This document shows, one piece after another, positions 49,402 to 57,726 of a stretch of 64,000 nt of DNA. Every line of letters starts with the position of its first letter. Position 1 is the stretch's first letter. Location: the NCBI GenBank assembly GCA_000092065.1, contig CP000586.1, one strand, 5' to 3'. The notes beneath the pieces are model-generated. The model searched no databases, was not told where the DNA came from, and worked only from the letters and a program-made list of their open reading frames with translations. The position numbers and the translations under genes were made by a program. Source of the stretch: Ostreococcus lucimarinus. Lineage: Eukaryota.

Positions 49402-52400
49402 TTACGCCGTCAGCGCGGCGCGCTCCGCCTCGACTGCGGCATTACTCTCTTGCTGTTGAAGCTGCGCGAGTTGGTTGGCGCCAACCTTGAATGCGCCCGG
49501 ATTGATCGCCACTGTCTTCGTGGTGTTGTTGGTCTTGTAAATACCGACCAATCTATCCGCGAGCTCGAACATGTTATTGCGCAGAGAAATGATCACAAAC
49601 TGAGCGTTTTTCGTTCGCTCCTTGATGTAATGTCCGACGATGGAAACGTTCTTGAAATCCAACGCAGCGTCAATTTCGTCCATGACATACAACGGTGTGG
49701 GCTTGTAGTGATGCAAAGCAAACACCAATGCGAGCGATGAGAGCGTCTTCTCACCACCGGATAAATTGGCGATGTTCTTCCAGCTCTTCTTCGGCGGGCG
49801 CACGCTGAAAACAATGCCCTCGGAGAAGGGATCGAGCGAATCTACCAGCTCAAGTTCGGCATCACCACCGAGAGTGATCATTTGATACATCTCTTTGAGT
49901 TTGAGCGAGATAATATTGAAACCATCCATGAACTCGTTGAGTCGTTTTTGTCGTAGCTTGTCGTACGCTTCACGAGTGTTATCACGCTCCTCCGTCGCCG
50001 CGCTCAACTCAGCGGCGCGCTCTTCGTACTCCTCCGCTTTCTTCGCGTACGCTTCGATAGATGACATGTCAGGCTTTGCAGCCGCGAGTTCTTCTTCTAA
50101 AATCACCGCCTTTTCTTGCATCTCGTCCGTCGTATGTTGCTCGAGCTCTTCGTCGTTCAAGAGTTCAGGCACTTCACCCTCCGCGTAAAGCGACGTGCGC
50201 TCCTTCGTCACCTTGTTGATTTCTTTATTCCAGTGCTTTTCCTTGTCTTTATTCTCCTTCTGGACGACGCTGAGGTCGTCTAATTTCGCTTGAATATCAA
50301 CTTCAACGCCTCGGATGGTGCCGACAATTTTCATTATTTCATCGAACGCTTTCTGTGCCTCGGAGAACTCGCCACTCTTCACTTCAAGGAGCTGCTTAAG
50401 TTCGCCTTGCGATTCGAGTACGGCGGCGGCGCCGTCTTCAAGTGCCTTGAATTCAGCCTCGTGATTCTGCATATTAGCCTTAATTTGCTCAACTTCGGCT
50501 TGATTGGCTTCGATTCCCTTGGAGAGACGAGCGGTCGTCCCTTCGTGAGACTTGGCCTTGGCGCGCTTCTCGGTGACGGCGTCAGACGCTGCAGCGATGC
50601 CGGCGGTGAGATCCTTGACTAACGCTCGCTGCCTTTTCAAGCCATCACCGCCAACGTTATCCATCTTTTGTTGCAACTTGGCTTCCTTCTGTTTAAGAGC
50701 GGCTGCACCCGCCGTGACTTCATCCAACACAACCTTGGCCTTTTCAACTTCTTTGTCGAGTCTCTTGAGCTCGTCCGCGTCGTTCTTACTCGCGTCATGC
50801 GCCGCTTCGAGTTCAACCAAACGAGTGGACAAATCAGCAGCCTTGGCTTCGGCTGCGTCAAATTCAGCCTTCAACTTGGGAATCATGCGTTCGATTTTGT
50901 TGACGATCGCCTCTGCATCGCGAGCCTCCTGGAGAGATTTGAGCGCCACCTGACGCGAGCGTTCGTAGAGTTTTCCAGCTTGTTCAAGCTCCACCTCTGC
51001 CATTTTAATCTCTTTCGCCACTTCGGCGGCATCGGTAATCACTGGTGCTTGATTTCCAACGCGCATTCTACCGGTACGCGGCTTGGAACCGCCACCACTC
51101 AACGTACCGCTGGTCTCAAACAGTTGACCCTGAATGGTAACCACTCGACGGCGCTTCTCGCCGTGAGCCAGGCGCGAAGCTTGTTCGAGATCTTGAGCCA
51201 CTAAAGTATCACGAACTCCGAAGTAGAAAGCGACCGCAAAGCGTTCTTCCGCGGGTTTGATCAAATCGATCAGGCGCGGCGCGTTGTCCGGGTTGGAAAC
51301 CTTTTCGTTCATCTTAGAAAGAAGATGCTTCTGTCTGTCGAGGGCAAGAAAGTTGCCCCGACCGAGGTTGTGCTTCCGAAGGTACGACACACAAAGCTGC
51401 GCATCGGACGTGGTTTCAACCAAGATGTGATCAAGAGGTCCACATGCAGTCGACACCGCGACATCATATTCTTTGTCAATAGCCCCAAGATCACCGAGAC
51501 GACCGAGAACACCCTTGAGCGCGCCAGCGGCTTGAGCGTCAAGCAACGCTTGCACCATCGCATTCTGACTCTTCTCCGTCTCGGCCGTCGAACGACGTTG
51601 TTCGAGCTTACCACGAATCTCACGAGTCTCAGCTTGCGCAGCGGCTTCTTTTTCTTTCGCATCGGCTTCCATTACTCGAGCCTTATCGGCGCGCGCGCGC
51701 TCTGTCTCCAACGTCGCTTCCTCTTCGCCGATGGTTTTCTTCAACTCGATAGCCTTCACGCGTGCCTCCTTTTGACCCTCACGTGCCGCGTTCAAAGACT
51801 TTTCTGCATCAGCGTGTTTTTCAAGGAGAAGGGCTCGCTCAGACGTAGCGACGTTGAACGCCCCCTGAGCCGCGGCGAGCTTACCTTCCCACGGCGCCAA
51901 ATCCTTTTGCGCTTGGTCGAGTTCGCGGCCCACCGCTGCGAACTCATCTTGCAAGCTAGCGACGAGAGCATCCAAAGCAGCCTCTTCTTTGTCGATTCTT
52001 GCCTCGAGATCTGCCTTTTTTGCTTCCAAAACGGGCACTTCTTTCTCAATCGCCGCGCATTCCGCCGCCATTTTCTGCTGCTTTTCCGTGTCCGTGGCAA
52101 TTTTCGTGTTGAGTTTCTTCACCGACGCCTTCATGTTTTTCAACTCCTCTCGATACTTGGCATCCTTCAGCTCGAAGTCGGCAAAGTCTTTCACACTCTT
52201 GTCGAAATCAGCTTGAATCTTGGACAATTCGTCAGCAATTTCGCCCTTACGGCCCTCTGCAGCCTTCAACGCGTCCTCGTGCTCGGAGTGTTTCGCGCGC
52301 TCTTCTTCGAGCTTTTGCGTGAGCGCATCCTTGTTTTCTTGAATCTTGACCAAGTTGGTTTGCGTCTCTTTGATGAATAGTTGGTACATCGTCGATCGCG

Positions 52401-53384
52401 TAGACAAGAGCTCTTTTTCTTTCTCTAAGAACGCCTCCGCCTCCGCCTTGACGATGGCGAGCGCATCCTTCTCACCCTCGACTAACTTCAATCGGTTTAC
52501 CATGACATCGCGCTGCTCGTTCAACTCCTCCAACTTCTTGCTCGCCTCTTCGATGGGCTCGACGTATTGCAAAGTACCGATGATGTCTTCCAAGTATTCC
52601 AATAAGCCTTCATCGCCCGGCGCCGCCCCTTTCGGCTTCATCATGGAAATTTGTTCAACTTCCCCTTGCAAGATGAGGAAACGGTTGTTGTTTAAATCCA
52701 CATCCTTCGACTTTAACAACTTTGTCACCTCTGTGAACGAGCTCGTCTTATCGTTCACGAAGTATTTGCTCGAGTTATTCCTGTACGCCTCGCGAGAGAT
52801 GACGAAATCCGAGTTCGGCACGATATCGTATCCTTCTTCGTCGTCCACGTGATCGATGATTTCGTGAAAGTGCACCTCCACACGCGCGTGCTCCAAATTT
52901 CTGAAATCTGTAGAGTTGTGAATCAACTCGCTCACCTTATTCAATCGCAACTGTTTCGCTCGTTTACCGAACACAAACATCATCGCGTCGATCACGTTCG
53001 ACTTCCCGCTCCCATTCGGGCCGACGACGGATGAAAAACTCTGCTCGAGCGAGTCGCGCGCGGCGCGTCAGTCCCCCGTCGTCGCGACGCGCGAACCAGT
53101 CAAATCGAACTCGAGCGCGTCGACATCCGCGCCCTCGCGCGCGTCCGAGCGCGCACCTTATGAAACGGTCCCACGTGTTGCGCCCCCGCGTAGGATTTAA
53201 AATTCTCCAGCACCATCTTCTTGATCGCCAATCGCGGTTTCCGCGCTCGTCGCTTCGCGTCCTCGTCGTCCTCGCGATGTCGTTCCCGTTCGTCCGTCTC
53301 CGTCGCCGTCGCGTCCTCGCGCGCGCGCGCGTCGCTCGCGGGCGCGTCATCGTCGCATTCGCGCGCGCCGTCTTCCGCCGTCAT
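49402..53384 (-). CDS. SMC4: Structural maintenance of chromosomes protein 4 (condensin SMC4); join(49402..53040,53157..53384) on the minus strand, ~1288 aa
   Basis: Exon 2 is collinear with SMC4 (VVGPNGSGKSNVIDAMMFVFGKRAKQLRLNKVSELIHNS.., long coiled coils, hinge, C-terminal LSGGEKTLSSLALVFALHHYKPTPLYVMDEIDAALD). The track ORF starts at an internal GTG (Val). The conserved N-terminal strand KMVLENFKSYAGAQHVGPFHK lies in a separate upstream ORF (53100..54173) and ends AAG|GTGCGC at 53157. The acceptor ..GAGCAG| at 53041 gives ..PFHK|SFSSVVGPNGSGKS, restoring the canonical Walker A context. The start ATG is at 53384 (MTAEDGARECDDD.., an acidic leader). Confidence 0.8.
53041..53156 (-). other. 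Predicted 116-nt intron of SMC4 (GTGCGC...CAG), phase 0, immediately before the P-loop
   Basis: The donor GT (53156/53155) follows the K codon 53159-53157. The acceptor AG is at 53042/53041. Exon 2 then begins at 53040 with AGT (Ser). All positions were checked base by base. Confidence 0.7.
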
Positions 53385-53389
53385 CGCGC

Positions 53390-53394
<5 letters not shown>

Positions 53395-53427
<33 letters not shown>
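53395..53427. repeat. (CGT)11 trinucleotide repeat in the shared SMC4 / MT-A70 promoter and 5' UTR region
   Basis: The cgtcgtcgt... run lies immediately upstream of the SMC4 ATG (53384) on the minus strand, where it reads (ACG)n. Confidence 0.9.
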
Positions 53428-53430
<3 letters not shown>

Positions 53431-53729
53431 GGTGTGTCATCCGTCGCCCGACCAACGACCGTTCCGTTCCCCTCTGTCGATGGCGCACGTGTCGCGCGGA
53501 ATACGGGGTTTCGTACTTTTTTTTTTGAAAATTCAAACGCCGTCGACAGGTGCGTCGATCGCGCGGCGCGCGCACTTGGACGCGCGCGCGCGCGGACGAG
53601 GCGACGGACGAGCGACGCGCGGTGCGGTGCGCGAGACGGACGCGCGCGCGAGCGAACGAACGCGGCGGGAACCGCGCTCGAAGACGCGGGAAGACGCGCC
53701 AGCGGTCGAGGCGTCGACAGCGCGCGACG

Positions 53730-55070
53730 ATGGCGAACGAGGACGGCGATGTCGCCGCGGGGAGCCGGCCGAAGCGCAAGGCGAGCGCATCGTTGCGAGC
53801 GCGGACGTCGCGAGGGAAACAAGCGCCGTCGAGCGCGCACTACGTGGGATACGTGCAAGACGACGAGACGCCAGAGATGATTATGAAAAAGTTTGAAGAG
53901 ATGGAACGGATTCGACAAGCCACCAAGGCGCAAGTCGGTGAGGATGGTGATAAGGAGAACAAGGAAGGCGCGACAAACGGTGCGGGTGGAGACGCGGTCG
54001 GGACCAACGGCGACGAGCACGAAGGGTTGGACGAGGAACAGTTGAAGGAGTTGTTCAAAAATACGTCTACGTTTACGGTGAAGGAGGCCGTGATGGATTC
54101 TAACGCGCTTTTCGGTGATATGAGGATCGCGAACGAAGATGGGATGTATTTCTCGGACGATGAAGAGTTGCAAGATGAATTCTGGGAGGCGCTGACCGGT
54201 AAGAAGCGTAGAGGTAAGAAATCCAAGGGGCCGAGAGTGCCGAGAGCGCCGAGAGCGCCGCGCGAACCAAAGGCGGCGCAGTCACACATGATCACCGCGT
54301 ACAATAGCGACCAAGGCTTGTTCTTGCGCAAGAAGAAGTTTGTTGATCCTTTCGAGCCTGTCATCATCAAGGTCCCGGCGCACCCGATTCCAGTGAGCTA
54401 TGGACGAGTAATTCAGCCGTACGAACCAAAATCGGTGCGAGAGGCGAAACTGAAACAAGTTCCCGATTGCGTGCACATGCAAACGAACATCAAGAAGATG
54501 GAATATGAATCGCTCGGTAAGGACTATTTAGGTGTGCTCATGAACCCGCCGTGGGATATTGAAGATTCCCCAGATCGCGGCGACGTGACGTTGGAGGACA
54601 TCGAAGCCATTCCGCTTGAAAAACTCACGCCACTCGGTTTCATCTTTATTTGGGTTGAGAAGGAAAATTTGTCCAAGGTTTGCGACATCATGGACCGAAA
54701 GAACTTTGTCTACGTAGAGAACTTGACGTGGGTACAACTCAAGCCGAACAACACGATCGTTGAGTCCTCTGCGCGCTATCTTGGTCGCTCGCACAGAACA
54801 ATGCTCATCTTCAGACGAGACGTTCGCGACAAGCGCTTCATTGAAGGGAAGAAGATTGAGTTGCGACACCAACGTAACTCGGATGTGACTCTCGATATTG
54901 TGCAGACCACGAAAACTGGTCGACGTGTTGTCCCTGAGCACGTGTACAAGTCCATCGAAACTCTTTTACCGACGGCGTACGAACCTGGAACGCCTGGTAA
55001 GCTCCTCGAATTGTGGGCCGAACCGGGCGCGCGACGCGCGGGTTGGACTTCCGTGGCGGATACTCCTTAG
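53730..55070 (+). CDS. MT-A70-family N6-adenine methyltransferase-like protein (NPPW catalytic motif), 446 aa
   Basis: GVLMNPPWDIED...LTPLGFIFIWVEKENL..CDIMDRKNFVYVENLTWVQLKPNN..GRSHRTMLIFRR is collinear with the MT-A70 catalytic domain (DPPW..[31 protein letters not shown]). There is no CCCH zinc-finger region. The track start 53550 is GTG. The first ATG is at 53730 (MANEDGDVAAG). Confidence 0.75.
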   Translation: MANEDGDVAAGSRPKRKASASLRARTSRGKQAPSSAHYVGYVQDDETPEMIMKKFEEMERIRQATKAQVGEDGDKENKEGATNGAGGDAVGTNGDEHEGLDEEQLKELFKNTSTFTVKEAVMDSNALFGDMRIANEDGMYFSDDEELQDEFWEALTGKKRRGKKSKGPRVPRAPRAPREPKAAQSHMITAYNSDQGLFLRKKKFVDPFEPVIIKVPAHPIPVSYGRVIQPYEPKSVREAKLKQVPDCVHMQTNIKKMEYESLGKDYLGVLMNPPWDIEDSPDRGDVTLEDIEAIPLEKLTPLGFIFIWVEKENLSKVCDIMDRKNFVYVENLTWVQLKPNNTIVESSARYLGRSHRTMLIFRRDVRDKRFIEGKKIELRHQRNSDVTLDIVQTTKTGRRVVPEHVYKSIETLLPTAYEPGTPGKLLELWAEPGARRAGWTSVADTP

Positions 55071-55091: not shown

Positions 55092-55988
55092 TCAATCCCT
55101 TTGGATACGTCTAATTTTTCTTCCGCTACTGCTAATCGTCGGTTTGGACAGAACTAATTCCTCTTGAGCTCTGGAGTGATTTACGTCGCCCCGCTGCCGT
55201 CTCTTCCGCCTATTTGTGGTGATGTTGCGTGGCTTTGACTCTTCTTTCGCCATCGCACGCTTTGTCTGTGCCTTCAGGGACGCACGATACATCAAACTTT
55301 CCTCTGTTTGCACAATAGTTCGCTTCGACGGCCCTCTGCAAATACTTCGCGAGTCGCGCAAAAACGTCTCCAACTGCTGCTTGCCGGCGCCGAGTCGCTT
55401 TGCCTCGCGCACTTTTTCATCCTCATCCACCGATTTTCTAGACAACCCTTTGGCCCAAGATGGAAGTTTTGGATTGAACCACATATTTTTACACTCTCGA
55501 ATCACGCTCAACGATCGCGGAACCTCGTTTGCGTTGCGATTGACGCGAATAATATCGCGCATTCGAGTCTTCAAATCCGTTCCAATAAAATGGTGCTCGC
55601 TCGCGTACATATACGCGACTGCAGTGTCCTCCAATCCTTCGGCGAATTGCTTCCAGCCTTTCAACGTCGTTCTAAAATTCTCACCCACATTTAAGCACCA
55701 AATACGTTTCCGTCGCAACACGTCGAGGAGCAGCATCAACTGCTCGTCGTACACCCCGTCTTCGAAGTTTTGCAAGTACAGCGCTTCGATTTTCGTGTTT
55801 TCCTTCAGCGCCTCGAGCACCGCATCGATCACTACCGGCTTAGCCGTGCTAGGGACGTATCGCTTCAACCTCAAGACCTTACCTCCGGCGTCACACGCGA
55901 GTGTGTTGTCGCGTAGGCGCGCGATGAAGTCGACGAAGGCGGGCGACTCGAGAACGTTCGAGCCAGATTCTCGCCGCTTCGCGCGCAT
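55092..55988 (-). CDS. Hypothetical protein with an RNI-like leucine-rich-repeat flavour, 298 aa
   Basis: ATG at 55988 confirmed. Ordinary composition. Weak LRR-like periodicity (KIEALYLQNFEDG.., IWCLNVGENF..). Basic C-terminal tail. No confident family. Confidence 0.5.
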   Translation of the reverse strand: MRAKRRESGSNVLESPAFVDFIARLRDNTLACDAGGKVLRLKRYVPSTAKPVVIDAVLEALKENTKIEALYLQNFEDGVYDEQLMLLLDVLRRKRIWCLNVGENFRTTLKGWKQFAEGLEDTAVAYMYASEHHFIGTDLKTRMRDIIRVNRNANEVPRSLSVIRECKNMWFNPKLPSWAKGLSRKSVDEDEKVREAKRLGAGKQQLETFLRDSRSICRGPSKRTIVQTEESLMYRASLKAQTKRAMAKEESKPRNITTNRRKRRQRGDVNHSRAQEELVLSKPTISSSGRKIRRIQRD

Positions 55989-56172: not shown

Positions 56173-57726
56173 CTAGCGCTCGCACGCGAATTGTGGAGAA
56201 AATTTTCTATCTGTGCACCCAGTCACGTGCGCCTTATCATCCCAACGTCCGGCGAACGGGACGATAGTGTCGTAAAACAGACACGTCTCGCGCATGTCCT
56301 CCTCGTCCGAGTCGTTGGAGATCCAAGCCCAAGCTCTGAACGCGTGGCTAGGTTCGAGGGCGTATTTTCTACAATCTACCGGCGACTTGGCGGTACCAGT
56401 ACCGAGCGGGGTCGCAAAATCTGCCTGGTCCAGTCCGATTAAGCCGTGCACGATGTTGGGGTTGGATGAGCTCTCGTCAGGGACGAGCACCTCGTCGGAT
56501 TCCTGATGCGCCACGGGTTCTGGGTTGGTCGGTACTGGCGACCGCACATCCGAGGGCTGATTAACAGGTTCTTGTACCGGCTCAGCCACCTTGGCCGGTG
56601 TCGTTGAGACCTCTGGTTCTGGGGCGGGGATTGCGCTCGTCGCGTTTTCGTCCGCGCACGCATGCAACGGCGAGACATCGGAAGCGGTGCACCCAGTGAT
56701 GAGCGTCGGCTCCTCGTAGCCAGCAAATGGCACGATTTCTTTGTAGAACAAGCATGTCGATCGCAATGAGAGATCATTCGCTTCCGAGTTAGCGTAAGCG
56801 AAAGCCACATAATTGTGCTCAGCGGCGAAATCTCTGCATTCGCCCGGACCGCTCGTCGATTGCCCTCTACCGAGCGGCGTTTCGTAAGCAACATTCAAAC
56901 CAAGCATACCGCGAACGATGTTCGGGCGAGTCTTCCGCACTTGCGGTGCGGGCTCAACTACAGCTTCCACCTCCTCCGTCTTCGGCACCCCCGGCTCGGA
57001 CACTGCGGTAGCTACCTCGTGCTTGGCCGCGGGCTCACCCGTCGCCGCCATCGCCGTGCTCTCAAGCTTGCATCCGTTCGCTGGAGATACATCGAAGCTC
57101 GTGCAGCCCATGATGTGCGCGTGATCTCCCGGGTACCCCTCAAAGGGCACTACTTCGCGATACATCAGACACGAGTTTCGCAACCGCTCGATGTCCGAGT
57201 ACGAATTCACCCACGCCCACGCCACGTAGTGTTCCTTTGCGTTGTCCGCGTACTCTCGGCACGCTCCGGGGGAATCAGCGTTACCGACCCCAGCCGGCGT
57301 TTCAAACGCGCTCATTTTCGGGTCAATGAAACCATTCACTATATTCGGATGATTACCGCGCACTTTCGCGTACGCCGCGGCTTCTTCCGCCGTCAGCGGC
57401 GGTTTGATTTGCTTCAACATCTTCACTTTGGTGTTGGATTCCGGGGCGACGACGTCGATCTTGCCCGACGTTGCCGGAGCGTGACGGTGTTGTGGCACCG
57501 ACACCACAGTACTCGTCGCGCTCTGTTCCGCGCACACGCACTTCGGCCCGTCGTCGCATCCCAAGTCCACGACCGCGCCATCGCCATCGCCGCGACCGAG
57601 GGCGAGACCCACGCCGACGCCGACGACTAACGCGGTCACGCCGACGACCACGGGGCGCTTGTACCACGGCACCGCAGTTGATTTGTGGGGGCGAGACAGT
57701 ATGAACGCTTTCTCTTCGTCCGACAT
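56173..57726 (-). CDS. Type II membrane protein with three tandem ~110-aa four-cysteine repeats (PAN/apple-like?), 517 aa
   Basis: ATG at 57726 confirmed. N-terminal cytosolic segment, then a transmembrane helix VVVGVTALVVGVGVGLAL. Three repeats each read .PNIV.G.I......TP.G.G....PG.CR.(Y/F)A......(V/F)A(W/F)A(W/Y)..S........CL(M/F)Y..(V/I)VPF.G.......(I/V)TGCT.....SP...C. Confidence 0.65.
   Translation of the reverse strand: MSDEEKAFILSRPHKSTAVPWYKRPVVVGVTALVVGVGVGLALGRGDGDGAVVDLGCDDGPKCVCAEQSATSTVVSVPQHRHAPATSGKIDVVAPESNTKVKMLKQIKPPLTAEEAAAYAKVRGNHPNIVNGFIDPKMSAFETPAGVGNADSPGACREYADNAKEHYVAWAWVNSYSDIERLRNSCLMYREVVPFEGYPGDHAHIMGCTSFDVSPANGCKLESTAMAATGEPAAKHEVATAVSEPGVPKTEEVEAVVEPAPQVRKTRPNIVRGMLGLNVAYETPLGRGQSTSGPGECRDFAAEHNYVAFAYANSEANDLSLRSTCLFYKEIVPFAGYEEPTLITGCTASDVSPLHACADENATSAIPAPEPEVSTTPAKVAEPVQEPVNQPSDVRSPVPTNPEPVAHQESDEVLVPDESSSNPNIVHGLIGLDQADFATPLGTGTAKSPVDCRKYALEPSHAFRAWAWISNDSDEEDMRETCLFYDTIVPFAGRWDDKAHVTGCTDRKFSPQFACER

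Follow-up and report, generated by a model that had tools for sequence, protein, structure and literature searches.

A probable AMT6/7 (MTA9)-type partner subunit of a DNA 6mA methyltransferase complex encoded in Ostreococcus lucimarinus

Gene model and MT-A70 fold

The stretch of Ostreococcus lucimarinus DNA analyzed here (64,000 nucleotides of contig CP000586.1, assembly GCA_000092065.1; hereafter the window) carries at positions 53730-55070 a single-exon gene on the + strand, transcribed away from the gene for the condensin subunit SMC4. The original prediction described it as an MT-A70-family N6-adenine methyltransferase-like gene. It is very probably the Mamiellophyceae orthologue of AMT6/7 (MTA9), the non-catalytic partner subunit of the AMT1/MTA1 complex that methylates DNA adenine at N6 (6mA). 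The features that bear on this assignment are as follows.

53730..55070, + strand: complete, single-exon coding sequence of an AMT6/7 (MTA9)-type MT-A70 protein, 446 residues and a TAG stop (open reading frame, full-length homologues, conserved M1; the best solved relatives are Tetrahymena MTA9/AMT7)
54420..55067, + strand: predicted MT-A70-fold methyltransferase-like domain, approximately residues 231-446 (AlphaFold2 confidence, Foldseek, hhalign)
54543..54554, + strand: motif IV, NPPW, residues 272-275, formally intact (sequence; fits [DNSH]PP[YFW])
54864..54875, + strand: RHQR loop, residues 379-382, aligned to the beta5/beta6 loop R378-H379-Q380-R381 of Tetrahymena MTA9 (7yi8_A)

The open reading frame extends from 53550 to 55070, with the first ATG at 53730 and the TAG stop at 55068-55070. 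The start codon and single-exon model are sound, because M1 is almost invariant in an alignment of 79 homologues and close homologues span 98-100% of the 446-residue protein. Marine metagenomes contain an identical protein, which stands at the head of a 90% cluster with 86 members, and relatives in public data reach E = 1e-247, placing the observation far beyond chance. The nearest named relatives are a 'predicted protein' of Ostreococcus lucimarinus and the O. tauri protein XP_022839183.1 ('MT-A70-like'); identity to the O. lucimarinus and O. tauri-cluster proteins is 73-83%, and identical matches are exclusively metagenome-derived. The O. tauri orthologue (XP_022839183.1 / CEF98283.1, A0A090N3K6; 439 residues) falls in the 90% cluster represented by P0005, a protein with 81% identity to that of the window. 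The AMT6/7-like family is large, since an exhaustive search of representatives with the family profile returned 326 at E <= 1e-30. Relatives are found in prasinophytes, core chlorophytes, Mucoromycota, Glomeromycota, Basidiobolus and one amoebozoan. The more distant marine lineages are labeled here only as 'Mamiellophyceae-like', with no claim that they are Bathycoccus or Micromonas.

Residues 231-446 are predicted to adopt an MT-A70 fold. In an AlphaFold2 model built from the alignment, the predicted local distance difference test (pLDDT) score is mostly 88-97 over this region, with two blocks at 80-86. Foldseek comparison with the PDB gave probability 1.00 to MTA9, MTA1 and METTL3 chains, with target-normalised template-modelling scores of 0.60-0.76. 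The top match was MTA9 chain 7yi8_A, and identities were 26-29% to MTA9 chains, 21-23% to MTA1 and 19-20% to METTL3. Alignment of the family profile to METTL3 with hhalign gave a probability of 98%. The Pfam MT-A70 model (PF05063) found no match in the whole protein or its C-terminal half even at E values up to 10, and the sole Pfam match was to N6_N4_Mtase (16.6 bits, below cut-off). PF05063 is matched by 54 of the 79 aligned homologues (best E = 1.4e-15), and a profile of the 79 sequences matches solved MT-A70 proteins at E = 1e-44 to 1e-10. Membership of the MT-A70 family thus rests on the PF05063 matches of homologues, on profile and single-sequence matches to solved proteins, and on the predicted fold.

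The core motifs anticipated by the original prediction are largely borne out: NPPW lies at residues 272-275 and is followed by an 'IWV' block reading FIFIWVEKE, while the proposed 'W.K' block, also after NPPW, reads LTWVQLK and fits only loosely. In a 116-sequence alignment the motif IV column reads NPPW in 28 sequences, NPGW in 24, DPPL in 17, DPPW in four and DPPF in three. NPPW marks the 28 closest, Mamiellophyceae-like relatives, NPGW or NxxW other chlorophyte-like sequences, and DPPL or DPPF the fungi. Each of N272, P273, P274 and W275 is present in 19/19 Mamiellophyceae-like rows of alignment A1. METTL3-type CCCH zinc fingers are lacking, as originally noted: no CCCH motif occurs in the 446 residues, and the 345 bp of intergenic DNA that separates the ATG from the SMC4 start codon leaves no room for an upstream exon. 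No RGG repeats are present either, the C-terminus ending in ...GWTSVADTP.

Clade, DNA-contact loop and cofactor pocket

Searches against solved structures consistently favored MTA9. With the single sequence, MTA9/AMT7 scored E = 3e-22 (82.6 bits), MTA1 approximately 1e-9 (41.6 bits) and METTL3 approximately 2e-4 (24 bits). With the 79-sequence profile the scores were 156 bits for MTA9/AMT7, 92 for MTA1, 53 for METTL3, 43 for METTL14 and 19 for Arabidopsis METTL4, and the MTA9-B chain 8xyl_B scored 150 bits. Taxa with abundant, AMT1-dependent 6mA at ApT mirror the phyletic spread of the relatives (PMC7145601, PMC12695648). The gene is assigned to the AMT6/7 (MTA9) clade because single-sequence, profile and fold scores all favor MTA9 and because this spread matches that of AMT1-AMT6/7. 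As judged from sequence comparison and the predicted model, the clade assignment, the invariance of the DNA-contact loop and the loss of most residues that contact S-adenosylmethionine (SAM) are shown in this analysis.

In the cryo-electron microscopy structures of the Tetrahymena complex, DNA crosses the MTA1-MTA9 dimer and is engaged by the MTA9 beta5/beta6 loop: Q380 enters the duplex as a wedge, H379 stacks against the displaced, flipped thymidine, and R381 together with R366 holds the backbone (PMC12485025). In the alignment to 7yi8_A, MTA9 H379, Q380, R381 and R366 correspond to H380, Q381, R382 and R362. RHQR is invariant in 79/79 family sequences and R362 is kept in 75/79; the equivalent of MTA9 K374 is not conserved in the family. 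The DNA-contact residues of MTA9 are reported not to be conserved in METTL14 (PMC12485025).

The five best listed alignments to solved structures were all to MTA9 variants, and METTL3 was therefore used as the catalytic reference for the cofactor pocket. Its catalytic-domain sequence was verified against 5il0_A before alignment to the family profile. The aligned positions are listed below (METTL3 residue, then residue of the window protein).

D377: N253 (N, P, K or D among the closest relatives)
D395: N272
S511: R399
K513: V401
E532: E427 (kept)
R536: E431
H538: G433
N539: A434
N549: D444
Q550: T445

Outside motif IV, 7/8 METTL3 side-chain positions that contact SAM are substituted and only E532 (E427) is kept. 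P514 (P402), an invariant neighbor that makes no contact itself, is also retained. Because of these substitutions the protein is most likely a pseudoenzyme and not a methylase itself. Its sequence suggests a partner in which the loop that handles DNA is conserved and cofactor binding is gone, the same pattern as in ciliate MTA9 and in METTL14. In the Mamiellophyceae-like lineage NPPW has been retained, apparently under constraint, unlike the remainder of the pocket. By analogy with EPPL in METTL14, it can be read as a structural remnant. Tetrahymena MTA9 has NALW at this position, and a mutation of N150 in that protein left activity without obvious change (PMC9852454).

By analogy with the Tetrahymena complex, the C-terminal domain would pair antiparallel with catalytic AMT1 and supply the RHQR loop, in which Gln would wedge the duplex, His stack on the displaced thymidine and Arg hold the backbone. 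The partner itself would neither bind SAM nor transfer methyl. The assembled AMT1/MTA1 complex would then maintain symmetric 6mA at ApT just downstream of active transcription start sites. Symmetric ApT 6mA has been mapped by nanopore sequencing to just this position in O. tauri and M. pusilla, both scored as carrying AMT1 (PMC12695648), and most maintenance methylation in ciliates is the work of the AMT7 complex (PMC11761967). For the alga, we infer heterodimerisation, a lack of catalysis and nuclear targeting.

Several points weigh against the assignment as an AMT6/7-type partner. Identity to MTA9 is no higher than 26-29%, all functional statements rest on homology, and the clade call was made from score differences and clade-specific residues. 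The AMT1 partner does not appear among the best 150 of the 326 relatives at E <= 1e-30, all of which score at least 190 bits and are AMT6/7-like, and a six-frame hidden Markov model scan of the window found no second MT-A70 gene besides that at 53730-55070. The motif IV is canonical in the 28 closest relatives, unlike the NALW of Tetrahymena MTA9, which points to some constraint on the pocket. Finally, the gene has not yet been treated as a partner: the distribution table of a 2025 survey (MTA70distribution) gives AMT6/7 = 0 for both O. tauri and M. pusilla, with AMT1 = 1 in each (PMC12695648).

The retained NPPW speaks for a catalytically competent N6-adenine DNA methyltransferase, acting alone or as the second active subunit of a heterodimer. 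It fits the [DNSH]PP[YFW] signature (PMC7145601), other N6-adenine methyltransferases function with an NPP[YFW] motif IV, and NPPW persists in the 28 closest relatives though their lineages share only 47-59% identity; the sub-threshold N6_N4_Mtase match (16.6 bits) is to a DNA methylase family. Such an enzyme is nonetheless unlikely. Among the seven replaced contacts are a charge reversal (R536 to E) and the loss of H538, N539 and K513, and the variation at the D377 equivalent (N, P, K, D) in the closest relatives would be unexpected for a working cofactor site. Sister lineages of the clade carry NPGW, NAAW or DPPL at motif IV, and METTL14 is inactive despite its EPPL remnant (PMC12485025). 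It is interesting to speculate that the pocket still works in another way, as a docking site for a flipped base on the complementary strand (for example parental 6mA or displaced thymidine) or as a second, weak catalytic center with an unconventional cofactor site. This is a rather improbable idea which, if true, would set the mechanism of the prasinophyte complex apart from that of the ciliate complex.

A role in messenger RNA m6A (N6-methyladenosine) writing, as an Ime4/METTL3-like or METTL14-like component, is implied by 'N6-adenosine-specific RNA methylase IME4', the automatic (JGI) name carried by many metagenomic homologues, and the fold is indeed common to METTL3 and METTL14. On the present evidence the name is misleading and the role highly improbable: the profile scores of METTL3 and METTL14 fall far below the 156 bits of MTA9, CCCH fingers and an RGG tail are lacking, the RHQR loop is an MTA9 trait not conserved in METTL14 (PMC12485025), and the survey gives METTL3 = 0 and METTL14 = 0 for O. 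tauri (PMC12695648). The original prediction also named METTL4-like and DNA 6mA-type enzymes as proteins of this shape, and its DNA 6mA alternative proved right. A stand-alone enzyme of the METTL4 type, responsible for DNA 6mA or for m6Am (N6,2'-O-dimethyladenosine) in small nuclear RNA, would share the absence of zinc fingers. It is scarcely credible given 18.9 bits (E = 0.008) to Arabidopsis METTL4 (7cv6_B), no METTL4 chain among the 50 Foldseek matches listed, and METTL4 = 0 for O. tauri in the survey (PMC12695648).

Three specific readings were rejected. A METTL3 orthologue with zinc fingers in a missed upstream exon, the outcome that the original prediction had set against its own reading, is contradicted by full-length homologues, the absence of CCCH motifs, the SMC4 start codon 345 bp upstream, the substituted SAM contacts and scores of 53 versus 156 bits. 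METTL14 / Kar4 was rejected at 43 bits, the motif being NPPW not EPPL and the RGG tail missing, and METTL4 / DAMT-1 on its score to 7cv6_B.

With the gene read as an AMT6/7-type partner, the AMT6/7 = 0 entries for O. tauri and Micromonas are contradicted by this gene family, a claim limited to the survey table, whose column order agrees with its human and Chlamydomonas entries. The survey gathered candidates with the Pfam MT-A70 model and by BLASTP from Tetrahymena AMT7 (PMC12695648). The zero could be explained by the failure of the Pfam model on the window protein, and the gene probably escaped the survey for this reason. The survey tree file lists three tips for O. tauri and five for M. pusilla (PMC12695648). 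The assignment removes an apparent exception to the rule that AMT1 and AMT6/7 co-occur, and adds a missing piece to the 6mA machinery of the smallest free-living eukaryotes, the piece being an ordinary member of a known family and no new kind of system. Copies of the partner occur in O. tauri and O. lucimarinus, and many more are found among related marine picoalgal sequences, which come solely from metagenomes. As a compact, intron-free gene, it lends itself to testing the roles of the partner and of NPPW in O. tauri, which was transformed with polyethylene glycol in the cited work.

N-terminal region, SMC4 pairing and neighboring loci

The remaining features of the gene and its 5' side are as follows.

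53730..54419, + strand: N-terminal region, residues 1-230, with the helix motif HYVGYV..ETPEMIMKKFEE, acidic low-confidence linkers at 71-156 and conserved strands around ITAYN/LFLRKK
54198..54284, + strand: basic patch GKKRRGKKSKGPRVPRAPRAPREPKAAQS, residues 157-185, 41% K/R with Lys and Arg at approximately 21% each
53385..53729, no strand: intergenic DNA between the two ATG codons, head-to-head with SMC4 (ATG at 53384), 345 bp, 70% GC
49402..53384, - strand: SMC4 (condensin), exon 1 at 53384..53157, a 116-nucleotide intron and exon 2 at 53040..49402; Pfam SMC_N and SMC_hinge; context only

Upstream of the MT-A70 domain, columns G40, Y41, E46, I51, M52, K54 and F55 are invariant across the 79 sequences. 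Model confidence is intermediate for residues 31-70 (pLDDT 62-81) and below 50 for residues 71-96 and 123-149. The N-terminus had been called acidic and Lys-rich, which is roughly right: residues 71-156 are 29-30% D/E, and the patch that follows is as rich in Arg as in Lys. Model confidence is low around this patch (pLDDT averaged by block is 54, 55, 68 and 53 over residues 151-190), and from its composition GKKRRGKKSKGPRVPRAPRAPREPKAAQS may be a nuclear localisation signal.

The neighbor is SMC4, matching the solved SMC4 chain 9f5w_B at 772 bits (SMC1, 189; SMC2, 99). Its intron (53041-53156, - strand, GT..AG) lies just upstream of Walker A, and splicing restores ...GPFHK joined to SFSSVVGPNGSGKSN; in L004, a locus of the O. 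tauri type, gene calling broke SMC4 into products of 88 and 1191 residues. The shared intergenic DNA contains a (GTC)11 run at 53396-53429, which starts 12 bp before the SMC4 ATG, and, at 53517-53534, a T10 run and then GAAAATTC, the latter resembling a heat-shock-element core (nGAAnnTTCn). No conserved block, these two elements included, was found between the window, L004 and L001. A scan of the region for bacterial promoters and terminators returned nothing, a scan that does not apply to a eukaryote. GC content across the window ranges from approximately 50% to 70% in 2-kb windows.

The gene arrangement in related loci is as follows.

L004: O. tauri-cluster, 81% identical; SMC4 head-to-head
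L001, L002: 54%-identical lineage, SMC4 61% identical; SMC4 head-to-head
L003, L005: 48-51%-identical lineages; SMC4 not head-to-head, ferredoxin gene upstream
L006: Chloropicon primus; SMC4 not head-to-head

The divergent arrangement over 345 bp, read in the original prediction as a shared promoter and a chromatin-related pairing, is real as an arrangement. Because the pairing is absent from two further Mamiellophyceae-like lineages and from Chloropicon, and the intergenic DNA is not conserved, it reads as lineage-restricted local synteny in gene-dense genomes, not as evidence of functional coupling or co-regulation. A functional link to SMC4 from adjacency alone was rejected, the pairing being confined to the closest lineages.

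UbiA prenyltransferase and 2Fe-2S ferredoxin genes accompany the AMT7-like gene, lying downstream of it in the SMC4-paired loci L001 and L004 and upstream in L003 and L005, where SMC4 is missing. This switch of sides points to a local inversion or rearrangement whose breakpoint lies at the 5' end of the AMT7-like gene.

On the 3' side, an open reading frame of 298 codons (55092-55988, - strand) without a Pfam match lies tail-to-tail with the gene, 21 bp past its end. It shares 56-64% identity with the N-terminal domain of the tail-to-tail genes at L005 (7537-8877, - strand) and L003 (7464-9044, - strand), whose products add a C-terminal Tudor domain of the PTM/DIR17 type (30.5 bits, above cut-off, in L005); the window copy stops before this domain. 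No copy was found in L004 or L001, and in Chloropicon an ARID-Tudor protein is encoded two genes downstream. This chromatin-reader-like neighbor may represent an older linkage than SMC4. Beyond it lies an open reading frame of 517 codons (56173-57726, - strand), also without a Pfam match. An N-terminal hydrophobic segment is predicted for its product, in which a Cys-containing domain of approximately 100 residues occurs three times (NIV.G...ETP.G.G....C..YA....AWAW.N......R..CL.Y..IVPF.G...TGCT....SP...C). An orthologue of this reading frame (37% identical) adjoins the AMT7-like gene in L004.

Comparison with known systems

The closest characterized counterpart is Tetrahymena thermophila MTA9/AMT7 (7yi8_A, 9o6k_A, 9u92_B), the best match by sequence, profile and fold. 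The two proteins are alike in size (449 residues versus 446 here), and the match is confined to the C-terminal MT-A70 domain, where a long insertion in the Tetrahymena protein splits it into two stretches. The ELRHQR..SDV loop, with the DNA-wedging His, Gln and Arg, is identical in both, and both carry a C-terminal (L/M)EL(W/F)A...GW block without the SAM-binding Arg, His and Asn. They differ at motif IV, eroded to NALW in Tetrahymena and NPPW here, a trait that separates the ciliate proteins and not the clade.

Tetrahymena AMT6 (PMC11761967) and MTA9-B (8xyl_B) are alternative MTA9-type partners of AMT1/MTA1 that fall in the same clade as the window protein. AMT7 interacts with a bromodomain-ET protein, and AMT6 is recruited by PCNA, with a PCNA-interacting-protein (PIP)-box-like EKKITDFFKR in an internal loop (PMC11761967); inspection of the window protein by eye revealed no such PIP-box-like motif. 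The published subset tree joins AMT6 and AMT7 as sister tips (support 99.9/100; PMC12695648). Their duplication may for this reason be lineage-specific, and the window gene is assignable to neither paralogue. At closer range, for the O. tauri orthologue XP_022839183.1, the cluster representative P0005 (locus L004) is also head-to-head with SMC4, and this O. tauri-type locus differs in lacking the 298-codon open reading frame that follows the gene in the window.

Human METTL14 follows the same logic, as an MT-A70-fold partner that has a degenerate cofactor site and helps the catalytic subunit bind substrate, and its core secondary structure is alike (PMC12485025). It belongs to another clade (43 versus 156 bits) and differs in its RGG tail and N-terminal fold. 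The substrates differ as well, METTL3-METTL14 preferring single-stranded RNA and MTA1-MTA9 methylating double-stranded DNA (PMC12485025). The catalytic subunit Tetrahymena MTA1/AMT1 shares the MT-A70 fold, is the second-best match (92 bits) and has a motif IV of the [DN]PPW type. Its SAM-contact residues (PMC9852454) match the METTL3 positions that are substituted here, a correspondence mapped by residue type and not by alignment. The RHQR loop, a feature of MTA9, sets the window protein apart from MTA1/AMT1.

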